Positions 309 through 54,399 of a DNA stretch of 64,000 nt are shown piece after piece. How positions within the stretch are numbered: position 1 is the first letter of the stretch; each line of letters starts with the position of its first letter. The position numbers and the translations under genes were made by a program. The notes under the pieces are model-generated. The model made no database searches. It saw only the letters and a program-made list of their open reading frames with translations, and had not been told where the DNA came from. The DNA is from Malacoraja senta (lineage: Eukaryota). The stretch is from the NCBI GenBank assembly GCA_038087875.1, contig CM075988.1, positions 11,348,001-11,412,000 on the forward strand. The letters are read 5' to 3'.

Positions 309-340
309 ATGTTGGTCCAGACAGTTATTTTAATAAGACG

Positions 341-990: not shown

Positions 991-996
991 AGCGAT

Positions 997-4230: not shown

Positions 4231-4284
4231 ATCAAAATGTCGCAATAAATCAATTGAATCTCCACAAGAGCATAGACAGAATCT

Positions 4285-4452: not shown

Positions 4453-4840
4453 TAGAATGTCTCATTTGTTTAAAGCATTTTTGAAATGTAGTCCTTGTAG
4501 TCAACTGCGATTCTGCGCTTAGCTCTGCCCACTGACGAAGTCAAACTCTTCAATATGACTCATGGACGACATGATTAACCATCAGCAATGAGTTTATTTT
4601 ACTTGCACGAGCACAGTCAAAGGCCACGATCATAACTCTAATATTAAGTTGGGACAGCAGGGCATTTATACACCAACAATATAATTACTAAGGAAGTACA
4701 AGGGTGAGGTAGATTGATGTGAAAATTACACAATCTATAGTTTACTTTTTCATTACACAATGGTCGAAACTTTTTGGCTCCGTCCTTAACCGGGTACAAA
4801 AGGTAATGATAATTAGTATGTTAATCATCCCGACACTAGA

Positions 4841-5445
4841 AACTAATGGACTATGGGTTAATAACTGGAAAAAAGCGAATTCTAACATTTTGGAAGAAGG
4901 CTCCAATACCAACTATAAATATGTGGACTTCAAATATGTTCGAAACATTACACCTAGAAGAGATAAGACTCCTCCTAGCATGTAAACCAGGTCACTTCCA
5001 CCTGACGTGGTCTGCATTTATAGAATTATTACTAATATAGGGTGCAAAAGTACTTAAAATTGAGGTCAGGTAAGGGGAGATGCTAGTTGAAGAGTTGGTA
5101 TGTCCCATTTACGTAATGCTCATAAAAATATTTGTTTCTCTCTTTTTCCTCTTTCTCTTTCTCTTTCTTTTCTAGGGTCTATTTCTTAACTCTTTTTCTT
5201 TTGTTTTTTAATTTTGCTCTTATAGGGTCTTCGTCCTTTTTTGTTGTCACATTTTCTACACTTTCACTTTTTCCTTCACTTACTTCTTTCTTTCAATCTT
5301 TTCTTTTTCTAGTGTAAAAAATAAATGGAGTACATTAATTGTAAGAAGACATAAGTGACGAGTACTAATGTATGTGGTTGTAATGTAATGTACTTCTAAT
5401 AAATAAAAATTTAAAAAAAAAATAATAATAATAATAATAATAATA
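4841..5445 (+). mobile_element. 5'-truncated L1 LINE (ORF2 C-terminus, 3'UTR, A/(AAT)n tail) with 14-bp TSD
   Basis: Close match to 57310-57914; AATAAA then tail; TSD ATCCCGACACTAGA at 4827-4840 and 5446-5459. Confidence 0.95.
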
Positions 5446-5511
5446 ATCCCGACACTAGATCGCAACCTGGCCCCACAGGATACATAGATAATGAAGGTAC
5501 CTGTGCTCAAC

Positions 5512-5601
5512 ATTTTGTTTAAGAAGGAACTGCAGATGCTGGAAAATCGAAGGTAGACAAAAATGCTGGAGAAATGCTGGAGTTTCTGCAGCATTTTTGT
5601 C
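5512..5601. mobile_element. Collapsed palindromic Penelope pLTR insertion with 14-bp TSD
   Basis: Inverted arms aggtagacaaaaatgctg / cagcatttttgtctacct; TSD TACCTGTGCTCAAC at 5498-5511 and 5602-5615. Confidence 0.85.
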
Positions 5602-5658
5602 TACCTGTGCTCAACCGTGGTTTCTGGCTGGCGATTTCTGAATGCTGCAATGCGGTAA

Positions 5659-6351
5659 AGGGCCTGTCCCACTTACGTGTCTTTGGCACACAAATTACGC
5701 GACCTCGCGGTTGCGTTGAGGCGCACGGGCATTGTAGGGCCGCGCGGGGCCGGTCCCACTTAGAAGCGTGGAGGGGTATGTAGTTGTGCGCGACATCGCA
5801 CGGGGCTCTGAAATTTTTGTAGTGAATTAAATCTTCGCGCACCAACGGCCTGTCGCGGAACTGACGGCCAAAGTGGGACAGGCCCATGACCCTGGCGCGA
5901 TGCAACGTCTCTCCTTCAACAGCAGCAGAAGCAGGCAAACGATCGCCGAACTCGGCCTGGGGCTCACGGCCGTTGCGGTCCGGATCCGCCCGCACTTCTA
6001 CTCCCAGAGCAGGGCCAAGAAAATTGAAGATAGACACAAAATGCAGGAGTAACCCAGCGGGACCGGCAGCATCTCTGGAGAGAAGCAATGGGTGACGTTT
6101 CGGGTCAAGACCCTTTTCAGACTGAAGAAGAGTCTCGACACGAAACGTCACCCATTGCTTCTCTCCAGAGATGCTGCCGGTCCCGCTGAGTTACTCCAAC
6201 TTTGTGTCCATCTTCAAATGACGTCACGCCCTCCAGACGGCTGTGCGAAGGGCATGGAATCGCGCCCGACCTTCGCAGGACTGTCTCGGCTCAACGCGAC
6301 CACGAGGTCGCGTAATTTGCGTGCCAAGGACACGTAAATGGGACAGGCCCT
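5659..6351. mobile_element. PIF/Harbinger-type MITE (693 bp) with TAA TSD
   Basis: About 60-bp imperfect TIRs starting AGGGCCTGTCCCA; TAA at 5656-5658 and 6352-6354; CpG-rich; no transposase. Confidence 0.85.
6025..6216. mobile_element. Palindromic Penelope pLTR cassette with hammerhead-like motifs on both strands, nested in the MITE
   Basis: 192-bp near-perfect inverted repeat centred on ttcag-a-ctgaa; CTGAAGA-agagtctcgacac-GAAACGTC from 6122. Confidence 0.85.
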
Positions 6352-7024
6352 TAAGGTAATGACAATGAGTATGTAAACTGACCGGTATTAGCTGACATCT
6401 TTGGAACACAAAGGTGAGGGGACGATGTGTTAATGGTATGTGCATCAGGGCCGGGGCATAGTAGAGATAGCGATGGGTATTGCAACTCGCCGCAAAACCC
6501 AAGAGACGCAGCAGAGGTGGTAGCAATGTTCGAAATTGTTTTGTGGCATGGAAGGTACTCGCTGGCGACTTTATTAAATGTATTTAATAAATAAAGCACC
6601 TCCAAGTTTTGGGACATCCACACACCGAGGCTTAAATCCACAGCTGACATACTGGAAAAACACTAAAGAATAAGACCATGTGTATGCCTCTATAAAGCTT
6701 GGAGAGTCTTCCATTTCACAAACTCGATATGGATGCAGGGTTAATTTAAAGTAAACCATCACCACCTGCTACATCCAATCTTACACTTTTAGCTAAAGCT
6801 GATCCTTTTATCATGAAGGTATTTTAGTCTGGCGCACTGATTTGTAAAATAGCCAGCCACTTCAAAATACAGAGATTCACTCAGACGAACCATGAACTCA
6901 CATTACCATTTGAAAAGAATAATAAGCTTGGGCTGACTCTCCAAATCATAATACATTTTGATTCATTTACTGCCTCAAACATTTGCATCACGGGTCCAGC
7001 CCATATTGGCTTTAGACAATGAGA

Positions 7025-7138
7025 TCAATAGACAATAGACAATAGGTGCAGGAGTAGGCCATTTGGCCCCTTGAGCCAGCACCGCCATTCACTGTGATCA
7101 TGGCTGATATTCCCCGATCAGTACCCCGTTCCTGCCTT
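7025..7138 (-). mobile_element. CR1 3' end fragment
   Basis: (caataga)n tail then ggtgcaggagtaggccattt...gtaccccgttcctgcc. Confidence 0.85.
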
Positions 7139-8304
7139 ACTTCAATCTTACTTCAATCATGTGAATAGCTTCAATGGTCTGTCAAGATTATTGAACTTAA
7201 ATAAAAAAATTGGGAAGAGTAAAATCAACATTATTAGAGCTGTTGATTCATCATTCTTTGACTACAATAATGGGTTATTTGACAGATGATGTTAAGTTAA
7301 CATTTCAAACTGTTGGATGGACATGTCCCCTCAATGCTAAGGAGTGGATTGCAAAGGCTTATATGATACAAAGGATCATCAGATTATTGCATTATCAATT
7401 AAAATTCCTTACAGCTTTATTCCAGTTGTTTTCAATTTCCAAACAACTTGTTGTTCGGGTCTGTTTAAACTTGAGCAAACCATCAATTGCAAACATTGGC
7501 ATCACTCTGCCACTAAACTGTACCTATAGGCCAAATTCAGGAGCTTGGAAATTGTGAGCACCACCACAATTCTTATCTGCAGCAGCACAGACCTATTAGT
7601 GCTACTGAAAGTAAGAATTTAATTGTTCTGTTTAGGTACATATGACAATAAAACACTCCTGACTCTTGTCTAAACCAGGTTTGAGCTGCCGTGGAATCAG
7701 CAAAAATACCGAGCATGTAGATAAATTTAAAAGTTCACATGATTTATCAGCAGTCTAAGCTTTATATTGCATCAAAAGCTACCTGGGCATCTCAGGGATG
7801 GAGCTTCTGGACAATGGTTTCTGAAGCCTTCTCGTGTTTGTGGCCTTGCTAACACCTGGCACCTTAAACCTCCACATCTAGGTGAGAATGGCTGTGTAGA
7901 GGTCCTCAGGTGATGATTTCAGATTGTTGGTCTAGTTCAGGGTGAAATGCCCCTTACAATCTGATGTTTCTACTTCTCATATATATATAACCAGGTTTGA
8001 TATTTGGAGAATGGATAGTGCAAAAAAAAAAAATCAATTCTGTTGAACTTAGTTTGTGAAAACAATAATATTTCCTTTGAGAGATTTTTGAGACATAGTT
8101 GAGCCTCATTGATTTTGTACATGACCCGAGGGAGTCATAAACAGCAGAAAAAGATGCAACAGCTTAAAAGTGTCAGTGCCTTTTGGATAGATGCAATGTT
8201 GTAGAATGTTCTTCACCTTCACCACAGTCATGACGTATTCTTGTCAAGAGTCCTCTTTCTCTTGGGCATGGACCTCTGCTGATGATGTTGTGTATCTCAT
8301 AGGT

Positions 8305-8650
8305 CTCCATTGAAACATACCAAATAGTGAAAGGCTTGGATAGAGTGGATGAGGAGATTATGTTTCCACTAGTGGAAGAGTCTACGACCAGTGGTCAAGA
8401 GTTAAAGGACATTCCTTCAGGAAGGAAATGAGGAAGAATTTCTTTAGTCAGAGAGTGGTGAATCTGTGGAATTCTTTGCCACAAAAGGATGTGGAGGCCA
8501 AGTCAATGGTTATTTCGAAGGCAGAGATAGATAGATTCTTGATTATTACGGGTGCCAGATGTGGGGAGAAGGGGTTAGGAGGGAGAGATGGATCAGCCAT
8601 AATTGATGGGCCGAATGACCTAATTCTGCTCTTATCACAGATGACCTTAT
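8305..8650 (+). mobile_element. CR1 3' fragment
   Basis: MRKNFFSQRVVNLWNSLPQ, the CR1 ORF2 C-terminal motif. Confidence 0.85.
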
Positions 8651-9419
8651 AGCTCTGGTACATGGTGCTTTGCTGCCCCAATTCCCTTCACATGAGGATC
8701 TTCTCCAAATCCATCAGCCTCATCGCCTGTGATTCATCTTTTCTGTCTTGTGTTTCGGCCAACAATTGCGACGACAGTAATGCGATGATGAGATACAATA
8801 TGCATCTTTGCTCATCCACAATCTCTACAGAAGACCTCTATATTCATACAGAACTGAGTGCAATACTGAGTGTTGTATCTTTGATACGGTGGTATATCAA
8901 ATACTGCCATTTAGCTGGAAGTTACTGCCTTCAAACAAACAATGTATGTGTTGATAGCTCTGGTATTATATGTAGTGATACAAAGAGTCATCAGAAACCA
9001 CATTTCATTGCTTTGTTTCTGGAAACTGACTATTGATTAAAAATTGTAATTAAAATAATATCACATCAATCAGGAACCTCTCAAATCAATGAAGATACCA
9101 TGATTTTTTATTTGTATTTTTCGCTTGTAATACAATGAAAATGTGGCAAGTTTTCACACACAACTGTCCCACAAAACTGACAGCTTAATCGGTTTTGTTA
9201 TTGGTTAGTTGAATAACTTTTCCCAAATGCCAAATAATTTCTGAACATTGTAAATCTAAGCTGTAACAGTGTTCGATATTTACTTTAAATGAATGGTACA
9301 GTTTAAAGTTTCCTCTTTTCAAAGTGAATCTGTTGGTGTTAATCTTTCATTATTTTAGTGCAAAGGCAAGTGAGATCATGTGCACAAATCTTAATGGAAA
9401 AATGTTCATACTAATGTGC

Positions 9420-9710
9420 GAGAGTCATATAGCCCAGAAACAGACCTTTCTACCCATCAAGTACTTGCCGACCATCTAACATCCTTTATGCTAATCCCAT
9501 TTTATTTCTCCTCAATTCACCCCAGATTCCACCACTAACCTCCACATTGGAAGCAAATTTAAGTGGCCAATTAACCTATTAACTTGCACTTCTTTGAGAG
9601 AATGGGAGCATCGGAGGAAACCCATAGAGTCAGGGAAAACCTGCATGCTTCACGCAGACCAATGGTTGGGATTGAACCTGGTGGTTGGAACCGTGAGGCA
9701 GCAATTCTTC
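9420..9710 (-). mobile_element. Degenerate V-SINE
   Basis: gccaattaaccta...gaggaaaccca...gggattgaacctgg...gtgaggcagc. Confidence 0.65.
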
Positions 9711-10238
9711 CCTTGACTGAGGCAAAGCAAATGCAACCAACTAACTAAACAAAAATAATTTTCTTTTGTGCTTTATGTTGATATGCAATTTCAACTTTGT
9801 ATTTAGTGACTTGGCCAAGCAATATTTGTATCTCCATCAGGAAGATTTGCATTTGGAGTGTGAAGTCATTGTCATAAGGCGACCAGTTCTGAGTGTTTTC
9901 ATTTTTTCAGAGTGGTCAAGTCTATTAAATAAATTCTCACCAATTGAAAGTTGTGAAAAACTGCTAAATAGTTTACAATGGAGTCCGAAATGTTTCTGCT
10001 CCATTTACAAGTAGGAAAGTGATTCAGCCTTGAGTCGATTCAGAATACAAGATCGTAATGTTAGCTCATAAAATTTAGTATCAGTGCAAAATATGATAAT
10101 AATTTTATTTATTACCTGGCAGGCAAATTGATGTATGATTTATTAAATCAGTCAGAGTGGACCAATGATCAGATAACTGAAATGCCGCGATTAGATTTGT
10201 ATTCTCTGATCGTCAATGATCTTCCCTGGTCAACTATC

Positions 10239-10323
10239 GAAGGTAGACACAAAATGCTGGAGTAACTCAGCAGGACAGACAACATCTCTGGATAGAAGGA
10301 ATGGGTGATGTTTTGGGTCAAGT
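10239..10323 (-). mobile_element. 85-bp Penelope pLTR insertion with 10-bp TSD
   Basis: gaaggtagacacaaaatgctggagtaactcag...; TSD GTCAACTATC at 10229-10238 and 10324-10333. Confidence 0.85.
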
Positions 10324-10659
10324 GTCAACTATCTCCATCGACATAAAGATAGTAACAAACATCAGCGGCAGCATACTGTAGCAAGTTGAACATAATGGTG
10401 TTGGCCCAGATTTTACACTTGGTCTAAAGTAATGGTACTCACAATTGACCTGAGGTGAATGTTGCCCATAAAGACCCCATAAACACCAAGACTCAGGGTT
10501 CTGGTGTTTGGATTGGTTGTTTTTACCTGTCAGATCAACACGATTCTTCACATCCACTTTCAATGTACTTGAGCAGTCAAGTACGTTAAAATATTTCCAC
10601 AGACAGCAAATCAATCAGGTAAAAATACCTTTTAATGAACATTTTAAGCACTATCATAA

Positions 10660-11270
10660 ATGAAAGATTTCAAAGTTCTTGGGGTCCAAGTCCATAATTT
10701 TTCAACAGTGGCAACACAAGTAGATAGAGTGGTAAAAATGATACATGGTATGCTCTCAGTTATAGGTTGTGGTATTGAGTATACGAGACAAGAAGTCATG
10801 ATGCAGCTTTATAGGACTTGATAGGCCACACTTGCAGTTCTGGTTGCCCCGTTACAGGAATGTTGTGGAGGCTTTGGAAAGGGTGCAGAGGTGGTTTACC
10901 AGAATGATTCTAGGATTAGGAAGTATTAGCGACAGGGAGAGGTTGGACAGACTTGGATTGTTTTCTCTGGAATGCAAGAGGGGTTATGGGGAGATCTGTT
11001 AGAAGTATATAAAATTACAAGAGGCATAGATAAGGTAGACGGTCAGAATCGTTTTCCCAGGATTGGAAAATCAAATACTAGCGGCATAAATTTAAGGTGA
11101 GAGGAGCAAAGTTTAAAGGAGATGTGCAGGGCAAGATTTTACACAGAGGGTAGTAAGTGCCTGGAACACACTGGGTGGTGGTTGAAGCAGAAATGTTAGT
11201 GGCATTTAAAGGACTTTTGAATATGCACAATGGAATGGAGGGATATGAGTTATATGCAGGTAGATAAGTG
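10660..11270 (+). mobile_element. Degenerate CR1 ORF2 3' region
   Basis: Frameshifted ..LYRTL.RPHL..QFW.P.YR.VEALERVQRWFTRMI.. motifs. Confidence 0.75.
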
Positions 11271-11354
11271 ATGATTGTGAGTGTTATTAGCCAAGTAAAG
11301 GAAGGCTGTAGAAGGTAAGATGAACAAGAATTGCTGGAAAAAAGAACATGTATT

Positions 11355-12775
11355 GAAAAAGACCAAATGTTCTGAAAAATCTCAGCAAGCAGGCTGCATC
11401 CATGGGAATAGAAACCGTTAACATTTTGGGTTGAAGACCCTTCAACAGAACTGAGAAATAGAGGCAACAGTTTAGTGTGCATGGTGCACAAGGTTGCGGT
11501 TGGGCAATGGGCAGAAGAATACATACCGAACAGTTTAGAATAAAGAAATGAAAGGAAAGGGATGAAAAGAATGACAGGGAAAATTGGCCATTCCTGCAGA
11601 GATAAAGAAAGGGAAAATTATCTGAAGTTGGAGAATTTAATATTCAAGTCAAGTCAAGTGAGTTTATTGTCATGTGTCCCTGGTAGGACAATGAAATTCT
11701 TGCTTTGCTTGAGCACAACAGAACATAGTAGGCATTTACTACAAGGCATTCTATAAATATATACACAATGGTCAATATACTGATAAAGTGCAAATAACAG
11801 TATTGGCTAGTAAAGTTCAGTGTTATGTCCGAGCCAGGTTTAATAGCCTGATGGCTGTGGGGAAGTAGCTGTTCCTGAACCTGGTCGTTGCAGTCTTCAG
11901 GCTCCTGTACCGTCTACCTGAAGGTAGTAGGGAGATGAGTGTGTGGCCAGGATGGTGTGGGTCCTTGATGATGCTGCCAGACTTTTTGAGGCAGCGACTG
12001 TGGTAGATCCCCTCGATGGAAGGGAGGTCAGAGCCGATGAAGGACTGGGCAGTGTTTACTACTTTTTGTAGTCTTTTCCTCTCCAGGGCACTCAAGTTGC
12101 CGAACCAAGCACCGATGCAACCGGTCAGCATGCTCTCTACTGTGCACCTGTAGAAGTTAGAGAGAGTCCTCCTTGACAAACCGACTCTCCGTAATCTTCT
12201 CAGGAAGTAGAGGCGCTGATGTGCTTTCTTAATAATGGCATCATTGTTCTCGGACCAGGAAAGATCTTCAGAGATGTGCACGCCCAGGAATTTGAAGCTC
12301 TTGACCCTTTCAACCATCGACCCGTTGATATAAACGGGACTGTGGGTCCCCATCCTACTCCTTCCAAAGTCCACAATCAGTTCCTTGGTTTTGCTGGTGT
12401 TGAGGGCCAGGTTGTTGTGCTGGCACCATATGGGCAGTTGCTCGATCTCTCTTCTATACTCTGACTCATCCCCATCAGTGATACGTCCCACAACAGTGGT
12501 GTCATCAGCGAACTTGATGATGGAGTTCGCACTATGTCCGGCTACGCAGTCATGAGTATAGAGTGAGTACAGCAGGGGGCTGAGCACGCAGCCTTGAGGT
12601 GCTCCCGTGCTAATTGTTATCGAGTCTGACACATTTCCACCAATACGAACAGACTGTGGTCTGAGAGTGAGGAAGTCGATTTGATTCCTAATATTGATTC
12701 CTAAAGGTCGCAATATGCCCATATGAAAAATCAAGCGCTGGTCCTTAGACTTGTGTTGAGCCGCTCTGTAACAGT
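11355..12775 (-). mobile_element. Old Penelope fragment (pLTR plus GIY-YIG C-terminus) interrupted by a Rex1/Babar insertion
   Basis: pLTR-like 11360-11455; ctgaagttggagaatttaatatt continues after the Rex element as QRLIFHMGILRPLGINI. Confidence 0.6.
11645..12680 (-). mobile_element. 5'-truncated Rex1/Babar-type LINE (RT C-terminal half open)
   Basis: STGAPQGCVLSPLLYSLYTHDC, KFADDT, KTKELIVDF, KKAHQRLYFLRRL, SGRRYRS..FPTAIRLLN; (gactt)n tail; TAATATT duplicated at 11638-11644 and 12689-12695. Confidence 0.9.
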
Positions 12776-13937
12776 GCTGGATAGAGACAAAGAGATGATG
12801 ATTTAAAGTCATGTCAGAGCGGTAACTAATTATTTATCTTGGTCCATAATTGCAGCAAACTATCATGCGGCCAGCGTGATGCGAATATGCAGTAACTTCT
12901 AAAATTAGAAAACAGAATAAAGATGTTGTCTTGTTCTATCATGAAGGGCAGATTAGACATTGCACTGACCTTCTGTGACACTATTCATTCTGAGATCCAG
13001 ATTTCAGTGGGATTCAACCAGTGGATTATGAGCAGTAGTTTCAGTTATTATGGTATCCAGTGGCCTCTTAGTTGTTCGTGACAAAATAAAGTAGGTTCAT
13101 TTTTGGGAAATTGCGGGAGTGAATCCAAGCCAGTGTGGCGCTGAGGAGTCCAGAAAAGCACAGCTGGCCCTGTATCTATAATAAAACACAATGGAAAACC
13201 TTTGGCTAAAGTCCCAACGGATATTGATGAAGTGACATGCCCTGCATGGATTCTTTTAAAATGGAAAACAAGTGTCTCCAAAACAAATATTAAATACGCA
13301 TGGACAGAGGAACTTGGAGCCATCAGACAGACACAATTCGACATGAGAAGCATGTTATCTTGGAGGTGGAAAGAAAAAACCCATCTGTTTAAAAGAGCTG
13401 TTCTCAAGCATTTGTAAGCAAGGCATGGAATTAAATCCTGCTTGTCCTCACCAAAGAACAGAACAGGATGGGGAGAAAAATCAATGGAATTTAGCATGAA
13501 AGTGCTTGAGTGAACATGAGATGCATCCACTCGTTGGTCAGTAACTGAGTCTCTGTTCCGAGGGTGAATCCAATCAGATATCCTTAAAGGGAAGGACTTG
13601 GAATATATTCCATGTGCTTTTATTGCTGTGCAAAACCTAATAAATGGCTGGATCCAAATGTTATTCACTTCCATATTCAAAAATGAACAATTACTACTGC
13701 CCATGAGATATTGCTTTTTAAGAAGTGTTCAGTAATTTTACAGCATTGTCTTAGTTTGTAATTCGGGGTTCGTATTTTGGACCAAGCTAACTCACGCGCA
13801 GAGTGACACCAAAATCCTTGTTTTATTCATAATGATTTGAAACTCGTGATTTCATACTCTACAAATAGTACTCTTATATATTTGAATATATAAATATATT
13901 TGTTTAAGAAAAATAATAAACTTGTAGAAATTATACT

Positions 13938-14195
13938 GAGAATAAGGGGTAAGCCATTTAGAACGGAGATGAGGAAAACTCTGCCTCAGAAGGCAGTGGA
14001 GGCCAATTCTGTGGAGGCTTTCAAGGGAGAGTTAGATAGAGCTCTTAAAGATAGCAGAGTCAAGGGATATGGGGAGAAGGCAGGAACGGGGTACTGATTG
14101 TGGATAATCAGCCATGATCACAGTGAATGGTGGTGCTGGCTCGAAGGGCCGAATGGCCTACTCCTGCACCTATTGTCTATCGTCTATTGTCTATT
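13938..14195 (+). mobile_element. CR1 3' end fragment
   Basis: LRIRGKPFRTEMRK...GYGEKAGTGY* and a (ctattgt)n tail. Confidence 0.9.
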
Positions 14196-15687
14196 GAGAT
14201 ACCCATGCGATAGAGTTACACTGGAGTTATAACTAGCTGAAGTTATACTTGCTGTAAATGTGGCACCAGGTGTTGGTCTATAAATATGGAAACACCATGA
14301 AACCGCAATAGCATAAGCACGGAGATGATTCATCCCAAACAGATGCTCACCAGTGTGTCCCAGTTACTTTGCCTACCTGCTGTTATTGTAATCTCAACTT
14401 CACGTGAGTTGGGAGTAAGGGATGTTGACTTGGTTGCTAGATTGATGGCAAATTGTTCATCTCGAGGGAGAGGTAGAATTAGTATTTAGCTGTCAATTAG
14501 TGCCACAAGAGACTCATCTCCAGTTGACTCATCGCTGAGGCACCAAGAACACCAAGATGGCAAGACTGTGAAAATGTTATTGGACTCATTAAAGCGCATT
14601 TATCTATTATATTAACAATATCATCATAACATTTAATTGTACTTTGAACAGTCCCAATGATTTTGATGGCATTTTGCTTAATAGGTTGTTCTAAACATTT
14701 AGCAGCTGCACATGAACAATAATTTATGCTTTAATTTACTTCTCTACTCATTAGTCTGATTTACCAGAGGCCCTTAATGAGTAATATTTTAATAGTTTAA
14801 GAGAAGACTTCTACATTATTTTTGCTTCCTCTCAAAAGACAGCTCCCTCATGAAGAACTTTTCTGATGAGAGATTATGTTAGTCCTATTAAGATGATCTG
14901 AAAAGCTCGAGACTGTGGTAGCTTTTAATTATTCCAGTACAAAGGTTTAAAATGATTGTGATACATTTGTTGGAAGTTGGATGGGTGGTTTCATTAATAT
15001 TATGATTTGGAATTGGGTTTATGTTTTATGAGGTCATATTTCCTGATGTTACCAGTACAAGTAAATGAAACTGCAAGCCTTTCTCTCGCTTTCTGCAGCA
15101 TTATTCAGTTAAAAAACATTTATATTCCACGTTGTTTTACTCCCGTGTTTTAAAAATACCATGCTAGCAGGAGTTATCCCATCAAAACTGTGATGTAGAG
15201 TGTAGGGGTGTAGAGAATGGTTGGAGAATTAATCTAATTCCCAGCTACACTGCGGTAATAACTATTTGGCATGACCATCTACCTAAGAACACAGGTCTCT
15301 TCCACTTGTTGAATAGGTTGAGTGAATTACGATGCACTTGAACTAAATTTAGAAAGTAGCTGCGCCAAGTTGAGTTAACTGAGCAGAGTGATAGATTCTG
15401 CACCATCCATCACTCACTAAGACTTTGTAGGTCACACAGCTCTCAGTTTCTCCCTTTGGATTGGCTTTGTGCCCTGAGGAACCACTTGCAGTTTCACCCC
15501 TGTGGGCCAGTACTGCTGCCTTAGGAAAGGCTTGAATGACACCAATATCTCCTGTCCCAATCTAAGAATTTTCATTTTTTATCTGTATCAAAGGAATGCC
15601 ATTGCAATAACTGCAGAGTTCAGATCTGACTTGAGAGCATTGTGCAGTAGACTCCCTGGATGAATACAGCTTGAGTTTGACACAAGT

Positions 15688-15878
15688 TAGACTCAAAATG
15701 CTGGAGTAACTCAGTGAGTCAGGCAGCATCCCTGGAGAAAAGGGATAGGTGACGTTTCAGGTCGGAACCTTCTTCTTCCTTTTCCTTTTCTCCAAAGATG
15801 TTGCCTGGCTCGCTCGGTTACTCTAGCAGTTATTGTCTACCTTCGGTATAAACCAGCATCTGCAATTCCTTCCTACAC
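15688..15878. mobile_element. Palindromic Penelope pLTR with central deletion
   Basis: tagactcaaaatgctggagtaactcag...ggttactctagcagttattgtcta...cagcatctgcaattccttcctacaca. Confidence 0.8.
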
Positions 15879-16313
15879 ATTGAGTTCGTTGCAATCCTTC
15901 ATGCAACTCCGAGGCATTGAAAAGTAAACTCATGAAAGTAAAAAGTACGAACATAAAAAGTAAACTGAATTGAAGGATTGTTTTTAACATTGAACACTCT
16001 TGTCCATACTTTGAAAGCAATAAAAATTTATGGGCTGACAATAGAGGTTTGTGAAGAGTATAAAATTTCATTACAACTATCTAGTAATTGCTCTCTGCTG
16101 CTGTTGCTCATACTTCAGAAGCTGTAAATGACTAGAACCCGAGTGAGGCAGGCAAGGAATATGCTTTGCATTATTAGTTTAACTTGTGCTCTGTGCATTT
16201 GTCAGGATTTTATTTTTTAAATGGAGGTTTGTAGAAAATTGATCCCATGGCACAAGAACATTGAAATCCTTTTTGAATCTGTTGTTTTCAACTCGTATTT
16301 TTGGCTTTGTGCA

Positions 16314-16432
16314 TTAATCTAGACCTATTTTCTTCCTTATTGCAGGTAAGTGAAAATCATTCATCCATCCACCCTGCACAATGACGTTGATGGATGGCTT
16401 ATGAGATGCTGTCATGTGGTCGTAAGGTAAGA
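16314..16432 (+). promoter_or_regulatory. Candidate recursive splice site with 81-nt RS (poison) exon 16346-16426
   Basis: TTAAT branch point 16314-16318; 16 of 18 pyrimidines at 16324-16341; CAG|GTAAGT at 16343-16351; downstream donor AAG|GTAAGA at 16424-16432; stops in all 3 frames. Confidence 0.6.
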
Positions 16433-17261
16433 GGAAAGATCACAAGGAGATGAAAGTTGCTCCGTGATTTTGACCCCTGGATGGACAGCAGGTACAAGAT
16501 TTTGACTAATTGAGAAGCGGAATGATGCACATCTTTTTTTGCATTTTATCACACAGAATCAGTAACCAGTTTATGTACTACAGCCTTTGAAATGTGGATA
16601 AAGCAGAGGTTGTTTCTTTAAGACTGAATTTAATCTGCATCTTGGACTTTGAACAAAAATACTTAGATTGTTTTTCTGGATTTATACCTAACAGATAAAT
16701 ATGCTTTCCTATCTCAGGATTTTAGATTCCCTATTGACCTATTGTAGCACTCTTGTTAAGTTCCAATATATAAGATGAATGCACAATCAATTTCATTTAA
16801 GGGCATGCTTTATTTTTCTAGTGAAAGGACTGTACGTGTGACCATAATCAATTTCATCATCTGTTGTCTCCCTGACAATTGCCCATTAATCAAACGCAAA
16901 TTAAGTAGCAATAAATTAGTCTTTAGCTACTTGGATGTAATTAGTAATGTGGAAAGTCTAGCCCTCTGCAGAAAAAGGTGAGTTTGACGGACGGAGAGAG
17001 GTCCACATACTTCTGATACTTCCAAATGTGGAATCGCTGTAACAAATATCTCAAGGCACTGGGAAGATAACACTACAGCCACCTCACCAAATAGCTTCAA
17101 AATCTTTGGAAGGATAAATAAACCAACATCTGTATCCTCTCCTAATATCCCACCAGTTGGTTCTGCAATGTTGCTCACATGCTCAACAGCAGACTACTCC
17201 ATCCTGGGCTGTATCATGGAAGACATCAGGTGGACAGAAGAAAGGATTCAATGATCTTTAG

Positions 17262-17385
17262 CGTCAGGGGTTATGGGGAGAAGGCAGGAGAATGGGGTTG
17301 TGAGGGAAAGATAGATCAGCTATAATTGAGTGGTGGAGTAGACTTGATGGGCCAAATGGCTTAATTCTGCTCCTAGAACTTATGG
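17262..17385 (+). mobile_element. CR1 3' end fragment
   Basis: gtcaggggttatggggagaaggcaggagaatgggg...gatgggccaaatggc. Confidence 0.8.
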
Positions 17386-17619
17386 ATGGGGCTCAAAACC
17401 TGTGAAAAAGTACAATCTCCCGACTCCTGAGAATCATTGGCCCATCACGAGTTAAATTAGAGAAGGAGCATACTAGATGATATTGCAAAGTTCAAACACA
17501 GACACTGGGACCATACAGTGCCCAGTATAAACAAACTTCCCATCCACCCATCCCACCAGGCATCTCATGCCCCAACTCTGGAAGATTCTGCAGTTCCCAC
17601 AGTAGTTCCCACTTTTGAA

Positions 17620-17980
17620 TAGTGAAAGGCTAGGACAGAGAGGATGTGGAGAGGATGTTTCCACGAGTGGGAAAGTCTTGGACTTGTGGTCATTGCCTCA
17701 GAATTAAAGGACATTATTTTAGGAAGGAGACAAAGAGGAATTTCTTTAGTCAGAGCGTGGTGAATCTTTGGAATTTTTTGCTACTAAAGGCTGTGGAGGC
17801 CAAAGGATATTTTTAAGGCAGAGATAGCTAGATTCTTGATTAGTATGGGTGTCAGGGGTTATGGAGAGAAGGCAGGAGAATGGGGTTAGGAGGGAGAGAT
17901 AGCTCAGCCATGATTGAATGGCGGAGTAGACTTGATGGGCCAAATGGCCTAATTCTGCTCCTATCACTTTTAACTTATGA
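17620..17980 (+). mobile_element. CR1 3' fragment
   Basis: FFSQSVVNLWNFL motif plus the CR1 3'UTR. Confidence 0.8.
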
Positions 17981-19239
17981 CAGTTTGGATGATGTAATGT
18001 TCAAACCCAGATATTGGGACCACACACTGGCCCAGTGGAAACAATCTTCCCATCCCATGCCATATCTGGTAGAGTCTGCAGTTCCCCCATTGCCTTCATT
18101 AGTCGTATCAGAACCATTGAATTGGAGTGGAAGCAAACTATCCTGAACCCAAAGGGGCTAACCAAGAAGATGATGACTGAAAGCTGTGTGCCCATTACTG
18201 AGCCATGTTCAGCACCATTTGACCTATGATGTTGTATTTTACTGCATTAGAACAGATATAGCCCATTCAGCCCTTAGGCCCAGTACCATTCAGAATGTTT
18301 ACTCTATCCAACTGCCCAATCTCCATGTCGCTCTACCAGGGCCAACAACAATCCAGCAGTCGGAAATGAACAGATGTTTCGGGCAATAATGGTATATTTA
18401 GATAACAGACAAAAAATGGTGGAAATACATAAGCAGGTTGAACATTTGTATTCACACATAATGTGCCCAATTCAGCACATTTAAACATACAAATATGATT
18501 GCCTAACACAAAATGGGTTTGGGAAATATATCAGTCTATATATTTGCTGTCAATTTATTGATTTCAGTAAGGGGGGGGGGGGATATTATTGTCATGTTTG
18601 CTTATATTGGTCCAGCAAGAACCAATGGAACGTGCTACTAGTTACATCCGCAGGCACCCACAACCTTTTAATGGGCTTCTACCCACTAACATATGACCAA
18701 CAGTTGGCTGACCTGTTCGCACCTCTGCAGGAACTTTGTACCTTTGCTAACGTTGTGTATCTTGAATCAATCAGGTTGAAGAATTCTTACTGTGAGTAGA
18801 AAGGTGTGTTAAAATATTTAATTCAGAAGCCCATTGTTCTGTAATGCGCAGAAACAGCAAATCAATATATTTCACTTCCATTTGCCATAATTTGGCATCC
18901 AAGTGGAAAATGTGAAGTCTTGCTCAGTGCTGAATCTATTTGCGATAGTCTGATACTGTTAGGAAGCTTGCACATGACATGCCCAGGAAGCGGCTGTGAA
19001 ACCTTAGTCCACTGGTTCATCCACACCCAAATATTCCTGGCATTCAGAATAATTTCATAAACTATTAACACTCAAACAGAGAATACTTTTTATATTGTTC
19101 ATATAGTTCAGAAAGTTTTAGAGATCAGATCAACATAACCCGATACAATTTTGATCAATGAGGCTGGGTCTTTTAGGTGCCCAAATCATGAAAGATGACA
19201 GCTAGAGAAATTTACTGAAAGAACATATTATTAACCGAA

Positions 19240-19790
19240 GCATAGATTGGAACCATCATTAAGCACAGATTCGGTCTCTGCTGCAATGCTGTGTTCAATT
19301 TGAGGTGAGGTGACGTGGTGAAGGAGATTTTCTAGATTTGCCGAAATGGTACAAGGGTTCTTGGAGTTCAGTCGTGCAAAGATTTTTACATGTATACAAC
19401 TGGATTGTTTCTCTCAAACAAAATAATATTAAACAGAGCTGTTCAAAATCACATATGGTTTTGAGAACATAATTAAGGCATGTTTGTTTTTTTGTGGCAG
19501 GTTAAGTAGGTGGACTTATGACTTAGATCCAAAATAATTGGTAAAACGTTTAGCGACCAAATAACAACTTTTGTTTTTATACGTCAATTTTATATCCGAT
19601 CTGGAATGGATCGGCTAAATGGGTGATAGAAGCACATTCAAAATAGAATTGTCCCATACTTGAAGAGGTCAGAGGATCATGAACAATGGGGTAAGAGCAG
19701 CATCTGGGATTATTCGGATCATTCCGGAAAATACATGGCATTGCCATGCTGGGCTGAATTACTTCTTTCTATGTTTTATCATTTAGTGGT
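19240..19790 (+). mobile_element. Highly decayed CR1
   Basis: agattggaaccatcattaagcacagattcggtctc (RPHLEY/QFWS-like); tgctgggctgaattacttctttctatg 3' end. Confidence 0.5.
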
Positions 19791-20445
19791 TTTATAATAT
19801 TATATCCAGTTAGGTTACAGCATCCTGATACATTCTGGGGACTTCTTAATGGGATGGTTATCTAATTCTTTTTTTTGTTTTCAATGCGTGTATTTTTTAT
19901 ATTTTTCGTAGCTTCTGATTTTTGGCATTCTTTAAAATTTTATCTACAGCAAAACATTTTTCCACCGATATGAGAACGTGCAGATACTGCATCCTGCAAA
20001 TATTAGTAATAAAACCTGTGACTCAGCAAAGCTCATTAGCAATAGTTACAATGGAATCAGCTCTGGGAATGACTAGGAGATTTTAATCTCCCTTCTCATC
20101 ATTTTTATGATTTGGTTGCTATTTGAATACTTTTTATTGTTCCCAAGATAAGTGTCTGCATCTAATGAAGTACCACATGATTTTCTCTGTAAAGAAATCA
20201 GGGAATTGTCATATCCCAGAACAGTACACTTAGTTACATTAGAAACAGAAGCTCTAACAGATGGTCATATGCAATAATTGGTTTAATATTTATCTATGAC
20301 CACAGATCAAGTTTATTAAAAACTTTAAACTTTTTGTTATGTCTTAGGACAACACATCTTTCCAAGTGCTTCAGACGATAGTAATTAGACAAAAAAAGGT
20401 TTTTAAAAATTGAGATATTTGAGAAAGATTAAAGATAAAAGGGTA

Positions 20446-20765
20446 GGACAGTGATGCAGTGGGTAGAGTTGCTACCTCACAGCGCCAGAGACCTGGGTTT
20501 GACTCTGACTACGGGGTGCTGTCTAGGCAGAGTTTGTACGTTCTCCATGTGATCACATGTGTATTCTCCAGGATTTTTCTCCCACATTCCAAAGACGTGC
20601 AGGTGTGTAGGTTAATTGACTTCTGGAAATTGCCCCTAGTGTGTAAGATGTGTGTAAGATTGCAAAGGTGCGATACCATAGAACTAGTGTATGGGGATCG
20701 ATAGTTGATATGGACATGGTGGGCCGAAAGGCCTGTTTCCATGCTGTATCTCTAACCTAAACTAA
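20446..20765 (+). mobile_element. HE1-type V-SINE, full length
   Basis: tRNA-like head (A/B box-like), V-domain gagtttgtacgttctcc, CR1-like tail and (actaa)n. Confidence 0.9.
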
Positions 20766-20809
20766 AAAAACTAAATATATAATGAAACATCTTGAGTATC
20801 AAAGTGTCT

Positions 20810-20950
20810 TACAGCATGGAAACAGGTCTGGCGGCCTAACTTGCCACACCGGCCAACATGTCCCATCCACAATAGTCCCACCTGTCTACACTTGACCCAT
20901 ATCCCTCTAAACCTGTCCCATCCATGCACCTGTCTAAATGTTTCTTAAAC
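20810..20950 (-). mobile_element. CR1/HER1 3' end fragment
   Basis: acagcatggaaacagg...cccatatccctctaaacct...cctgtctaaatg. Confidence 0.75.
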
Positions 20951-21068
20951 ATTGAGTGATGAGAAAGCAATGGAGAAGGCTGGTGAGAAGGTAGAAACAA
21001 GGAACTGCAGATGCTGGTTTACAAAAGATGACACAAAGTGTCAATGATGTTGCTGACTCACTGAGTTA

Positions 21069-21867
21069 AGGGCCTGTCCCACGGGCAGGCGATTCCATGC
21101 GGCAAGCGCGACCTCCCCGGAAGCGGGGGCCGCGCGGCTGCCGAGTGATCACCGTACGGCCTGTTCCACGAGCATGCGAATGCATGCGGCAAGCGCAACC
21201 TAACCGGAAGCGGGTGCCGCGCGGAGGCCGAGTGATCACCGTACGGCCTGTCCCACGGGCATGCGCTTCCATGTGGCGAGCGCGACCTTACCGGAAGCGG
21301 GGGGTGAGCGGACGTCCAGTTCGAGCAAAGTCTGTTGGAAGCTCGAGCGGTGTTTATGTAGGTGAACACGGGTAGGTGATGTTTCGGTTTTTATGTAGGT
21401 GAACACGGGTAGGTGATGTTTCGGGTCGAGACCCTTCCTCAGACCATAGAAGACTGCAGAAGAATTCAGTCCGAAGAAGGTGTCTCGACCCGAAACACCA
21501 CCTGTCCACAGAAGCTGCCTGATCTACTGAGTTACTCCAGCATTTTTGGTGTGTCCATCTTCGGTGTAAATGGGCATCTGCAGTTCCTTCCTTCACAACA
21601 ATTCCAGAGTTGACGGAGACGTTGCACGCGGCGTCGAGGCGGTGCGCGTAGCCTCGATACGGCAGCGAGGCGGCAGGCCGTTGCCGCGAGGAATTTTTGA
21701 ACAGTGTCGGTTTTTCAGAGCCCCGCGCGGTGTCGGGACCAACTACATACGGCTCCGGCGATCTACGTGGGACCGACCCCGTGACCTCCGCGCAGTCCCC
21801 GCGCGGCCCCCGCTTCCTGTTAGGTCGCGCTTGCCGCATGGAATCGCCTGCCCGTGGGACAGGCCCT
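21069..21867. mobile_element. PIF/Harbinger-type MITE (799 bp) with TTA TSD and three 87-bp terminal repeats
   Basis: 46-bp perfect TIR AGGGCCTGTCCCACGGGCAGG...GCGCGACCT; TTA at 21066-21068 and 21868-21870; repeat units start at 21071, 21158 and 21245. Confidence 0.9.
21412..21445 (-). ncRNA. Minimal hammerhead ribozyme motif inside the MITE
   Basis: Reverse strand reads ggt-CTGAGGA-a-gggtc-tc-gaccc-GAAA-CA-TC-acc, with a 3-bp stem I (ggt/acc) and a perfect stem II. Confidence 0.55.
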
Positions 21868-22279
21868 TTACTCCAGCACGTTGTGTCTTCGCTGGTGAGG
21901 TGATGGAAGGTTCACCAAAACAGAGTGAAGGATGTTATAGATGCATGAGGACACAGAATTGGAGCCATGCAGAAATTGCAAAATGATCCAGCAGGGATAC
22001 AGAGGGATTATTTGGGTAAGACAGTAATATATAGAGAATAGAATGAAAGAAGTTTGGAAATAGGATGTCAATTTTGTTTGAGCTTGATGAGCTCGGCAGA
22101 TGTTGTTCGGAAAACTTTAGAATGATGATTGTGTTTGCAACAAAGATGTGGATAGAGGATCCAGCAGCAGCTCAGTGGGGGCAAGGTGGAGGCAGAGGGA
22201 CGACTAAGAAAATCAGATGAGAGAAGCAGAAGGCAAATTATTGTGGCTGACTTAAAAACTATCACAAAACGATGGATGT

Positions 22280-22640
<361 letters not shown>

Positions 22641-23429
22641 TCAGAGTGGAGGGTGACTTTACATGAGATGGGATAACATCTGGTATGTTCGAATTCTTTG
22701 TGAAAGGGAGTTAGTGACCTGGAGAAAGGCTTGTGTAGTTATCGAGCTACAGTGTAGGATGATAGACTGAAGTCATCCATCATCACAAACACCAGGCAGT
22801 CTTTCTCCAGCAAATACAGCCCACGTTAAACCAATTGTACAAGGACCAGTTGATGACAAGAACCAAATACATATTCTTTCTGATCAGCTGAATATGTTGA
22901 GTATTTGATGGTCTTACAACTGACCACCTCTGAGATATGATTAGAAACTATTTCTGAGAATGAAACAGTGTGACTTACAAATCTACAATCTTCCGAGCAA
23001 GTATAAGTTACAAGCATGGGCTTTTGTGACCCTGGTAACATTTAAGCTGATAGAAAATGTGAATAGAACAAAAGGATTGCGTGAAATTTGAAACTTGTAA
23101 ATCTGCATGTAGCTGTTGCAGAAGACCTTTATCATGACAAGGGACAATGTAAATGTCTTCATGGATAGATTTGCATTCAAATAAATGCAGCAGAGTGAAC
23201 TCAAGAGTGTCAAGCCACAGTTCATCATTGATGATATTGGAAAAAGGCAGGGTGGATGCATTTATGAGTTTGTACTTTTCAATGGCATAATTAATGATAG
23301 TGAATCCTAACCATCCTCGCTAGCCTGAACATACAGATTTACAGGTGTGCAGTTTCAAAATCTAAATTTTAGAATTTAATTGTTGCTGGAGGTATTTTAT
23401 AACATGGTTGTTCTCATTATCTCTTCCTT

Positions 23430-23542
23430 TACTTTCTGCTCTCCTTTCATTCTGTGTCTGTTTCTATCTCTGTCTCTCTCTGTCCTCTCTCTATCTCTGC
23501 CTCTGTCTCTGTTTCTCTCTCTCTTTTTTTTCTTCTTTTTTT
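23430..23542 (+). repeat. Degenerate (CT)n tract
   Basis: Direct inspection. Confidence 0.9.
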
Positions 23543-23619
23543 AGAAAAAATTAAAACTTTTATTTAAAGCTTTTTCATGTAAAATGTTTCAAAGAAAATA
23601 ACTTATCCATTAGGTCCAT

Positions 23620-23875
23620 TGTGGGAGCACCAGAGCTCCAGGTTTGATCCTGACTGTGCAGTTTGCAAGTTCTCCTCGTGACCTGTGTGGGTTTTCTCCG
23701 GGATCTCCGGTTTCCTCCCACACTCCAAAGTCGTATAAGTTTGCAGGCTAATTGGCTTAGAAAAATTGTAAATTGTCCCTCATGTGCATAGGATAGTGTT
23801 AATGTGTGGGGATCGCTGGTTGGTCCGGACTCAGTGGGCCAAAGGGCCTGTTTCCACACTGTAAACTAAACTAAA
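23620..23875 (+). mobile_element. HE1-type V-SINE
   Basis: B-box-like ggtttgatcc, V-domain, (actaa) tail. Confidence 0.88.
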
Positions 23876-23881
23876 AATGAT

Positions 23882-24100
23882 CCCTTTTCTCTCTCTCTCT
23901 GTTTCTCTCTCTCTCTCTCCCTCTCCCTCTCCCTCTCCCTCTCCCTCTCCCTCTCCCTCTCCCTCTCCCTCTCCCTCTCCCTCTCCCTCTCCCTCTCCCT
24001 CTCCCTCTCCCTCTCCCTCTCCCTCTCCCTCTCCCTCTCCCTCCCCCCACCCCCTCCCCCCCTCCCCCTATCTCTCCCCCCCCCCCCTCTCTCTCCCTCC
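23882..24100 (+). repeat. (CTCTCC)n hexamer microsatellite
   Basis: About 20 perfect ctctcc units flanked by CT and C runs. Confidence 0.97.
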
Positions 24101-24309
24101 AAATTATTCAATATAAATGGATGTCTAATAAGCCAGTAAATGTTTTCCTGGAATTGTGATCCCAGTTCCCGATGTCTATGCTGCATTTACATGCAGGCAC
24201 AACTGGACATGTGTAGTTAATTAAAGCAAATTGCATGCAGCACACATTTTATTGTTACTTAACATGTTTGCTCTGTAATTACAAAGCTTGGAACAGCCTT
24301 TACACTTCA

Positions 24310-24580
24310 GTGTGGAAACAGATCCTTCGGCCCATCCAGTCCACTCAGACCAGCAATCACCCCGTACACCAGCACTATCCGACACACTAGTGACAATTTA
24401 CAGAAGCTAATTAACCTATAAACCTGTACGTCTTTTGAGTGTTGCAGGAAATTGGAGCACACGTAGAAAACGCACGCAGTCGCAATGAGAACATACAAAC
24501 CCCATACAGACAAGCACCCATAGTCAGGATCGCACCCGGGTCTCTGGCGCTGTAAGGCAGCAACTCTACCACTGTGCCAC
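24310..24580 (-). mobile_element. HE1-type V-SINE
   Basis: ggaaacagatccttcggccc...gtcaggatcgcacccgggtctctggcgctgtaaggcagcaactctacc. Confidence 0.9.
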
Positions 24581-25913
24581 TTTGCCTAGTGCTTGCATGT
24601 AAACATAAACCCAAGTGTTATTGTGTTTGGAATTAGTTAAACCTGATGTAACCTGATCAACTAATAGGTAGATTAAGTGTTTGTTTCCACCCCCATCTCT
24701 CCCTCTGTCCTGAAGCCCAACAATCACACAACCCTTACTGACACCATTCATAGATTCACCATTTTAATCCATCACCCCATTCACTATACTCTTTTGATTG
24801 CTTTTCTGAGTGCCATCCATCTCACGTCAGCACCAACTACAGTCCCATCACCTCTCAGCCAACACCAATCAAATACAGCCTATACCCTTCTGACCAAACT
24901 TTGTTCTCAGCCCAATGATTAAACTCCATCACCAGCCCCACAACCAAGCCAATTTGGTTTTGATCCAACCTCCCCTTCTGTCCGAATGACCCCTTTCTTC
25001 TCCCCACCCTTATCCTCAGGTCATTTAAGCCTCTTCCACATAATAAAGTCACAGAGACAGACAGCACGAAAACAGTCCCAAACTCCCAACTTGCCCATGG
25101 TTAGGATTCACCATGATGCCTCAACTATACTAGTCTTACCTGCCCGCGTTTCGCACATATCCTTATAAACCTTTCTGATCCATGTACCTGTGCATATACC
25201 AATGTTGCTAATTTTATAAAATTCTTCATATCTTGGTTCCAGTCAAAGCGTTTCTGATACGTTGAATGCATGAGTTGAGGGATTGCTATCACACTTAATG
25301 TTGTATTTTAACCATGGTGCCTCATGACTCCTGATTAACTAGCTGTTAACCTGCATGGACCGACTTTCATTTTTACAACCATCACTGCCACAATATGATC
25401 ATCTTGTTGTGTCCAGGAGACGTATTTGTAGAGCACAGACTGTTTTGTGAATTGTGGTGACAGGTGCTCCTCCATTACTGAAATAATCTTTTGATAGTAA
25501 TCATATATAGAATATTGATGCAAATATGGAAATGTAGTATTGTTGATTGAAGTAATCATATATGGGAAATCAGTGCAAGAATTGACATTGTTTATTGTGT
25601 AAACCCTGTAAATAGTCATAAGATCTAATGTATCATGTTAATATTGTGAGTATACTTGCACTATTTTTTAAATGGTTGTACTGTCAATAGGTCTTGTCCT
25701 CAGTTCTATTCAGTGTGAAAGCTACCTTCTGTCCATGTGATAAAATAACTACACATACTCATACATGCTTAATTTCACTTCAAAATAAACTCAATAAGTG
25801 ATAAAGTATATCTTTGATGGACCACTTTCCATAGAATCTACATCTTGAGTCTGGCATTTCAGATACATTGTTCTCTGCATTAATGTCTTCTGATTCACCA
25901 GGGATTACACTAA

Positions 25914-26291
25914 GCCTTGCCGTGTACTAGTGTGGCTGGGTTTGGCCAACTGCTGCAGAGGAATTTAGGGATTTGCATCATTTTATTTTTGAAGTCATGT
26001 CAGTTCCTTGCCCTGAAATCTGAATTTAAAAGTGAAAATGTCAAGGTACCTAGAAGGGTCTTGAAGAAGGGTCTCGATCCGAAACGTCACCTATTCCTTT
26101 GCTCCATAGATGCTGCCTCACCCGCTGTGTTTCTCCATCATTTTTGTCTACCTTCGATTGTTCCAGCATCTGCAGTTCCTTCTTAAAGATATCTAGGTTT
26201 CCTTCATTTGCAGATATGCCTTGCTTCTCACTGAGGTGTAATTAGGTCACTGGAAATGATATTTGAACAACCAAAAAATACAACAAAAAAA
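25914..26291 (+). repeat. Copy 1 of an about 375-bp direct duplication containing a Penelope pLTR (about 26053-26187)
   Basis: Almost identical to 27638-28013. Confidence 0.95.
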
Positions 26292-27637
26292 CTTGTTTTC
26301 AGATTTATTTCAGTATTACTTCCCAATAACTGCAACAGTCAATACTTTCAGTATCTGTGGATGAATCCTATTGAAATAAACATGGGCCAGGTGGAGAATT
26401 AGGAATTTGACAATCGTGACCTGCAACATACATCCATTTTCCCTAATTCACATTCTAAATGTTGAATTTGTTGTGATGCAAGTAATCTGGTTCCCATCAG
26501 TCCACCTCTCTGATCACTTAAGTCAGAATACAATTGCTGGATGCAAGATGCATCATTTCTGAATTGTCCAGGTACTTCATCTCATGACCACTGCCGTAAC
26601 CTCAATATTACCTTCTCAAATCATGAATTAATCATTGCATTTATTTTCAATGAGGTGAAAATTCCTCACATTGGCGTAAAATGCTCAAGGATCATAAATA
26701 ATATCTGAGCGAGCCCACTAAAGATGGAGTCCTATTTTCTGTGGTGTTTTAATGTAATGCAGCTTTCCTGCAGCTCTGTATTGTTTAACAATTTAATCCT
26801 TCATGAATTTGACTGAAAGGATTATCACTACTTAGAGTACAGTGAAGTGACTCAATAAATGGAGAACGTTGAAAGCGATGAAGGCAAAATATCTGCAAAA
26901 CTCTTCAAAACATATCCGTGACTGATGACAAATTATTCTCCTAAAAGCATCTGAGAGTAATAAATATTTAAATAGAAATCTAATGTCTGGAAGCTCATGA
27001 ATTTTGTTCGCTAATTCACGATTCCCTGTTAGATGTTTCACTGAATCATTGATAGGCTTGCTGCAATCTACAGTGTTTTCACTTTAACAAGAATGCACAA
27101 CACATGAAGGACTTCCCACTGTTTAGAGCTGAATTTCTCTACAACTCATCGCTGTTGAGAGGACAAAAGGCCATGAGTGACCTACAGAAAGCAAAGACAT
27201 TTCATGCATCAGTACTGAATCTTTGAGACCTGACTGCTATCACCTGGTTCCCTTGGCAACCAGGATGTCTGTGTATATTAAAAATCTCTAAATGTTGGCA
27301 TGAGTGATGTGGCAGAAGAAATTATTCAGAGGCTGATGGGTTGAAATAATGTGTCTTGGCAGTAAATACATTCGGTGGTGAAAAGTTTGCTTGAAAACAT
27401 TGTAAGTCAATGTAAACAAGCCTTTGTGAGATGAGACTCCCCAAACTGCAATCTTATTTTTGTTTCTCTATTCCTACTTTGAAGATTCATTACTTTTGAT
27501 GTCAAGAAAAATATTAGTCAGTAGGTTCTGTTTATCATACAGTTATGAACTTGAACATAATTCGCATCCATCTGGCTAGAATGCCGTCTGAACAAGTTTG
27601 TAATATTTTAGGAGTGTTGTAGTCATCTGATAAATTT

Positions 27638-28013
27638 GCCATGCCATGTACTAGTGTGGCTGGGTTTGGCCAACTGCTGCAGAGGAATTTAGGGATTTGC
27701 ATCATTTTATTTTTGAAGTCATGTCAGTTCCTTGCCCTGAAATCTGAATTTAAAAGTGAAAATGTCAAGGTACCTAGAAGGGTCTTGAAGAAGGGTCTCG
27801 ATCCGAAACGTCACCTATTCCTTTGCTCCATAGATGCTGCCTCACCCGCTGTGTTCTCCATCATTTTTGTCTACCTTCGATTGTTCCAGCATCTGCAGTT
27901 CCTTCTTAAAGATATCTAGGTTTCCTTCATTTGCAGATATGCCTTGCTTCTCACTGAGGTGTAATTAGGTCACTGGAAATGATATTTGAACAACCAAAAA
28001 ATACAACAAAAAA
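27638..28013 (+). repeat. Copy 2 of the about 375-bp direct duplication
   Basis: Almost identical to 25914-26291 (offset 1724). Confidence 0.95.
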
Positions 28014-54395: not shown

Positions 54396-54399
54396 TGTT

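Follow-up and report, generated by a model that had tools for sequence, protein, structure and literature searches.

The first intron of an OPCML/NTM-type gene

The window, the whole stretch of 64,000 nucleotides analysed (C12:11348001-11412000 of the skate genome), lies inside intron 1 of an IgLON gene of the OPCML/NTM type, which is situated on the + strand and is about 2.0 Mb long. The gene was found with patterns made from IgLON motifs. Intron 1, from exon 1a to exon 1b'' (C12:10883059-11960160, + strand), measures 1,077,102 nt as assembled and includes window positions 1..64000. Exon 1a (C12:10882998-10883058, + strand), encoding an alternative signal peptide, was mapped from annotated cartilaginous-fish proteins; the peptide is present in annotated proteins of skate, ray, shark, and chimaera. 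Exon 1b was recognized by the IgLON motif pattern (match at C12:11960205, + strand; internal acceptor, 1b'', at 11960161), as was the V-domain exon at C12:12335151 (+ strand; pattern match at 12335214). Later exons, found by a search with the skate protein, reach 12.90 Mb on the same strand, the coding exons from exon 1b on occupying 11.96–12.90 Mb of C12. Several cartilaginous fishes have annotated proteins that contain the 1a-to-1b'' junction (P0001, P0124, P0128, P0132, P0177, and P0185). The best matches of the V-domain exon (78 residues) in PDB were neurotrimin and OPCML, and over these residues it showed 100% identity to the proteins annotated as OPCML in two skates. The arrangement of exons 1a and 1b is that of the twin-promoter genes Opcml, Ntm, and Lsamp in mouse (PMC5288359). 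The earlier note had placed the window within a very long intron of a neural gene read from the + strand. This placement was borne out: the window is not intergenic, the host gene is on the + strand, and the OPCML/NTM type is among the families that the note had listed as hosts of recursive splice (RS) sites.

Intron 1 contains four 200-N assembly gaps, and a perfect tandem duplication of 17,267 nt (C12:11466055-11500788), likely an assembly artefact, extends across a 200-N gap within it. The true length of the intron is thus somewhat uncertain; the exons still flank the site on the + strand. The donor of exon 1a, AAG|GTACTG (C12:10883056-10883064), is unusually weak for a 1-Mb intron, and because of this weak donor exon 1a was missed by hydrophobic-exon scans. 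Ab initio exon prediction over 664 kb, judged by eye, yielded no convincing coding exon. The host gene was not matched in Ig-family searches either; the Ig-family matches on C12 are presumably ROBO-, HEPACAM-, IGSF9B-, DSCAML1-, and CADM1-like exons, of which CADM1 alone was confirmed. A CpG-rich patch at C12:11.225 Mb was considered as a promoter and rejected; by eye, it was repeat-like. Further proximal first exons are suggested 1.1–1.3 kb before exon 1b, where short ORF starts match, by eye, the N-termini of skate isoforms P0127 and P0131. The window also carries ORF fragments of non-LTR retrotransposons at 565-1056, 11823-12833, 30337-31170, 33348-34133, 36440-37849, 53773-54405, and 55297-57507, which we take to be reverse-transcriptase-like (the longest of 736 aa, on the - strand).

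The acceptor-donor junction and the predicted RS-exon

Positions 16314..16432 of the window (+ strand) hold a candidate recursive splice site with its RS-exon, 481,287 nt from the start of intron 1 and 595,815 nt from its end. The splice signals pointed out in the earlier note were all present at their positions. A branch motif, TTAAT (16314-16318, A at 16317), precedes a tract with 16 pyrimidines in 18 nt (16324-16341). The polypyrimidine tract and CAG acceptor together cover 16324..16345 on the + strand, and 17 of the 20 nt preceding the AG are pyrimidines. The CAG (16343-16345) abuts GTAAGT (16346-16351, + strand), the putative recursive donor half-site, which would read AAG|GTAAGT once exon 1a is joined. 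The 81-nt segment 16346-16426 (+ strand), the predicted RS-exon, is closed by a downstream donor, AAG|GTAAGA (16424..16432, + strand; PWM 6.62). Stops occur in all three of its frames (two, one, and three per frame). In the frame of exon 1a the segment reads Gly-Lys-stop, with stops at 16351-53, 16402-04, and 16423-25. The TTAAT motif fits yTnAy, its A lying 29 nt before the junction (23 nt in a close relative, organism B). It is the only yTnAy in the zone from -18 to -44 and may be used as the branch point, although such a motif is present in 40% of random 27-nt intron windows.

The site lies outside repeats, as had been thought: self-BLAST of 264 kb masked 15676-15881 and 17260-17384 and nothing between them, and the site gave a single DNA match in the genome, that is, it is single-copy. 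A stem within the RS-exon fared differently. Its arms, CATCCATC/GATGGATG, are present; as evidence for the site the stem was rejected and given no weight, since the structure of the RS-exon was no better than that of shuffled sequences (z = -0.06). A 221-nt span gave z = 0.46, and a perfect 8-bp stem was found in 4.9% of 1,500 random 81-nt windows. Rfam returned 0 matches within the 64-kb window.

The earlier note had held the 9-mer alone to be ordinary and only the combination to be informative, and the counts agree with this. YAGGTAAGT has 2 matches in the window vs. 1.0 expected, and the site is the top-scoring one among the AGGT sites of the intron and lies in a conserved block. It ranks first of the 4,120 sense AGGT sites in intron 1 (score 12.3; next 9.5) and outscores all 4,066 antisense ones (best 8.3), the scores being those of an approximate home-made PWM built from human frequencies, not of MaxEntScan. 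No other YAG|GTRAG with at least 16 pyrimidines in 20 nt was found on either strand of intron 1. The chance expectation in the intron is 0.18 for GTAAGT and 1.8 with both GTGAG and GTAAG allowed, independence being assumed; by itself, the motif proves little in an intron of this length. For a donor of the strength of AAG|GTAAGA to lie 40–350 nt from a random intron position, P = 0.033, and the product of motif and downstream donor (0.18 x 0.033) is about 0.006, with thresholds set after the site had been seen.

Genome-wide, the strict pattern, which was shaped on this site, had 5 matches vs. 19 for a reversed control, and only at this site was it accompanied by a strong downstream donor. The other four strict combinations of a pyrimidine tract with AG|GTAAGT are at C1:2495571, C2:99264115, C4:52032698, and C5:50700561; the C2 site adjoins a repeat and the C1, C4, and C5 sites do not, and no cadherin prodomain was found near the C5 site. 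YAG|GTRAG was commoner on the sense than on the antisense strand both in IgLON intron 1 (62 vs. 39) and upstream of CADM1 exon 2 (44 vs. 28), an excess that possibly comes from repeat orientation. A likeness of the RS-exon to a published mouse Lsamp RS1 primer (13/21) was rejected as noise: it had P = 0.03–0.06 for 1 of 5 primers, and an unrelated Cadm2 primer was equally good. A genome-wide pattern used in testing this likeness matched the present site only.

Conservation was assessed in organism B, one relative of about 97% identity represented by contigs from three runs of one sample. A single unbroken alignment covered window positions 15900-17198 and contained 40 substitutions and 5 indels. 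A conserved non-coding block of 237 nt, 16270..16506 (+ strand), is free of substitutions (0 of the 40), so that conservation extends over the whole RS-exon and 80 nt beyond. One indel lies in the block, 6 nt at 16319, between the branch motif and the pyrimidine tract. The AGGTAAG motif, on whose conservation the earlier note had staked its reading, was unchanged in this one relative, as was the RS-exon. The lack of substitutions in the 119 nt first delimited has P = 0.020; by simulation, a substitution-free run of 237 nt covering the site has P = 0.0026, and one anywhere in the 1.3 kb, P = 0.011. This evidence is shallow, consisting of one relative and one sample, with an indel beside the branch motif.

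Predicted splicing of the intron and rival functions

Analysis of these features makes it quite probable, in our judgement, that the junction is a recursive splice site, which would split the 1.08-Mb intron 1 into about 481 and 596 kb. The last three nucleotides of exon 1a are AAG, and its own donor, AAG|GTACTG, scores PWM 0.9. The RS-exon would be defined between the CAG acceptor and AAG|GTAAGA, and exon 1a would be spliced to it during transcription, whereby the weak AAG|GTACTG would be swapped for the consensus AAG|GTAAGT. Removal of RS-exons has been modeled as a competition of donors (PMC6224609, PMC5126111). Here, the rebuilt donor (PWM 8.15) is predicted to outcompete the downstream one (6.62), by a small margin; the second intron piece, when excised, would take the RS-exon with it and leave exon 1a joined in frame to exon 1b''. 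Some transcripts, a minority, may use the downstream donor instead; these would keep the RS-exon, and their translation would stop after 22 codons. As the two donors are close in strength, there is room for ordinary inclusion of the RS-exon. The effect would be limited to transcripts from the distal 1a promoter.

The RS-exon had been called a poison exon in the earlier note, and the term is right for the protein, which would end at Gly-Lys-stop, and doubtful with regard to NMD. The stop starts 67 nt after the AUG, and in human data the start-proximal zone of less than 150 nt from the AUG largely escapes NMD (PMC13043745). With the stop so placed, inclusion would abolish the protein and may not destroy the RNA.

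The closest counterparts are in mouse, where a single RS site is listed for Ntm, at 288 kb from the upstream exon, and a single one for Opcml, at 238 kb (PMC8797253); in the skate, the distance from exon 1a is 481 kb. Both mouse genes resemble the skate in gene family, long 5' intron, sense strand, a tract followed by AG|GTAAGT, and an RS-exon closed by a donor. Their rebuilt donors are AAGGTAAGT for Ntm and CAGGTAAGT for Opcml (PMC8797253 S4 Fig). The skate donor AAG|GTAAGT is identical to that of Ntm, which scores MaxEnt 11 in the mouse table (PMC8797253). The RS-exons differ: that of Ntm has 124 nt with downstream donor CAGGTAGGT and that of Opcml 136 nt with AAGGTATGG (PMC8797253), whereas the predicted skate RS-exon has 81 nt and AAG|GTAAGA. 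In the mouse data, the pyrimidine fraction of RS sites is 0.6–1.0 (PMC8797253 S3 Fig), and only about 20 saw-tooth sites are given for cortex, 75% of them in first introns (PMC8797253). A human OPCML site is attributed to Sibley 2015 (PMC8758631). The vertebrate RS-exon class is described by a AGGTAAGT motif, a strong acceptor, a first long intron, stops, and competition of two donors (PMC6224609, PMC6110456). With the cryptic RS-exons of this class (CADM1, CADM2, ROBO2, PDE4D, ANK3, NCAM1, HS6ST3, and LSAMP) the skate site shares motif, acceptor, intron type, and stops. At the level of sequence, it has AG followed by a consensus donor, a strong acceptor, a position on the sense strand of a giant first intron, a downstream donor, a stronger rebuilt donor, and a premature stop. 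The class has been reported in mammals and zebrafish, and the skate is a cartilaginous fish.

Two other functions were weighed against recursive splicing. The segment could be a conserved cryptic or poison cassette exon that is retained at a low rate, or bypassed when exon 1a is spliced straight to 1b''; re-splicing at its 5' end would then be rare. Such an exon would fit the strong downstream donor, whose score is close to that of the rebuilt donor, the three stops in the exon-1a frame, and the conservation of the whole exon and 80 nt beyond. RS-like cryptic or poison cassette exons are, like the skate segment, unannotated and stop-bearing, lie in long neural introns, and have a strong downstream donor; of the 84 candidate AGGT junctions in mouse brain, 46 proved to be unannotated exons and not RS sites (PMC8797253). 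A cassette exon, however, does not need a perfect GTAAGT at its start, and the start-proximal stop would be a poor trigger of NMD by human rules (PMC13043745). In the mouse, the rebuilt donor is weak in most RS-like cryptic exons, the saw-tooth sites being of the AGGTAAGT type (PMC8797253 S4 Fig), whereas the rebuilt donor of the skate would be a full consensus. We regard a simple cassette exon as improbable.

Still less credit is given to a conserved non-coding element of some other kind, for example an enhancer or an RNA-protein binding site, in which the splice-like motifs would be coincidental; this appears very unlikely. Conserved elements are plentiful in long neural introns, which counts in favor of such an element, as do the chance of a clean 237-nt run somewhere in 1.3 kb (P = 0.011) and the motif expectation of 0.18, which is not small. 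Yet an acceptor with a donor abutting it, a second donor downstream, the sense strand, and a conserved block would all have to coincide, and to do so in an intron where mouse Ntm and Opcml carry RS sites. There was also no strict match on the antisense strand, no Rfam match in the window, and no notable RNA structure.

Origin of the host gene and of the site

With the skate protein as query, one NTM/OPCML-type gene was found on C12 (110 of 164 candidates scored); the same query recovered a NEGR1-like gene in two copies and a partial IgLON on C5944. An LSAMP-like V-domain exon was not found genome-wide with the skate OPCML-type query or with IgLON patterns. In the skate genome a single gene of this type was found, whereas the mouse has both Ntm and Opcml. 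The cartilaginous-fish proteins among the 120 matches listed were named OPCML or unnamed, and none was named neurotrimin. A tree was built from 40 chosen proteins (10 cartilaginous, 12 NTM-type, 10 OPCML-type, and 8 NEGR1), without ray-finned fish, LSAMP, or IGLON5. It grouped tetrapod NTM with OPCML and left the cartilaginous fishes outside (96/90); alternative topologies were not rejected (p-AU 0.141 and 0.058). Exon 1a resembles, by eye, exon 1a of tetrapod NTM. The host gene appears to be orthologous or co-orthologous to NTM and OPCML, and judged from the sequences it is likely their pro-orthologue; gene conversion between NTM and OPCML could also yield this tree.

A control was made at CADM1 with a criterion fixed beforehand (YAG|GTAAGT with at least 16 of 20 pyrimidines) in the 594 kb that precede exon 2 of the skate gene; mouse Cadm1 carries a known recursive site. 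The sense strand held one qualifying site, at C12:18336362 (- strand), 65 kb before exon 2, with 0.091 expected, and the antisense strand of the same 594 kb held 0. This site reads tag|GTAAGT, has 17 pyrimidines in 20 nt, is followed by a donor at +131 with stops in every frame, and is non-repetitive. A search for CADM1 exon 1 was negative both in the 600 kb and, with a short query, genome-wide. Between exon 2 and the first gap, at 18379060, there is no exon 1, and the site is therefore probably in intron 1. The control is weak alone (P about 0.09).

The earlier note had suggested that the mechanism dates to the jawed-vertebrate ancestor. For this date, which is likely, the support comes from the position of the site in the orthologous intron. 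We tentatively propose, as a possibility somewhat short of probable, that the skate site is the surviving single-copy ancestor of the NTM and OPCML recursive sites, that it was fixed in intron 1 before the duplication in bony vertebrates and has been in place since the jawed-vertebrate ancestor, and that CADM1 is a second case. An origin of a working recursive site within cartilaginous fishes, independent of the mammalian NTM and OPCML sites, seems rather unlikely to us; it concerns origin only and is compatible with the recursive function. In the comparison with the mouse sites, which covered 20-nt tracts and donor 9-mers, the tracts of Ntm and Opcml resembled the skate tract in pyrimidine richness only, which would fit separate gains. 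The RS-exons differ in length (81 vs. 124 and 136 nt), and giant introns could favor repeated gain. Against separate gains stand the occurrence of one strict site in the corresponding intron of a gene of this family, the like site upstream of CADM1 exon 2, and the recursive splicing reported at zebrafish cadm2a (PMC5126111).

A loose literature search found no report of recursive splicing in cartilaginous fish; Sibley 2015 may already show conservation in fish, and lungfish introns have been surveyed for saw-tooth patterns (bioRxiv 2024.12.11.627982). The mechanism itself is already known, high-confidence sites being so far mammalian with the addition of zebrafish cadm2a, and the skate site is a prediction. 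It is still an open question whether giant neural introns require fixed recursive sites (bioRxiv 2025.08.14.666599). One in the corresponding intron of a cartilaginous fish would move their date back to the ancestor of jawed vertebrates and speak for purifying selection over a long time. The NTM and OPCML sites would share one origin if the skate gene represents their parent gene before its duplication. Should descent from a common ancestral site be true, the fixed set of recursive sites would go back to the origin of jaws, and a single-gene system for asking why such sites are retained would be available in skates.
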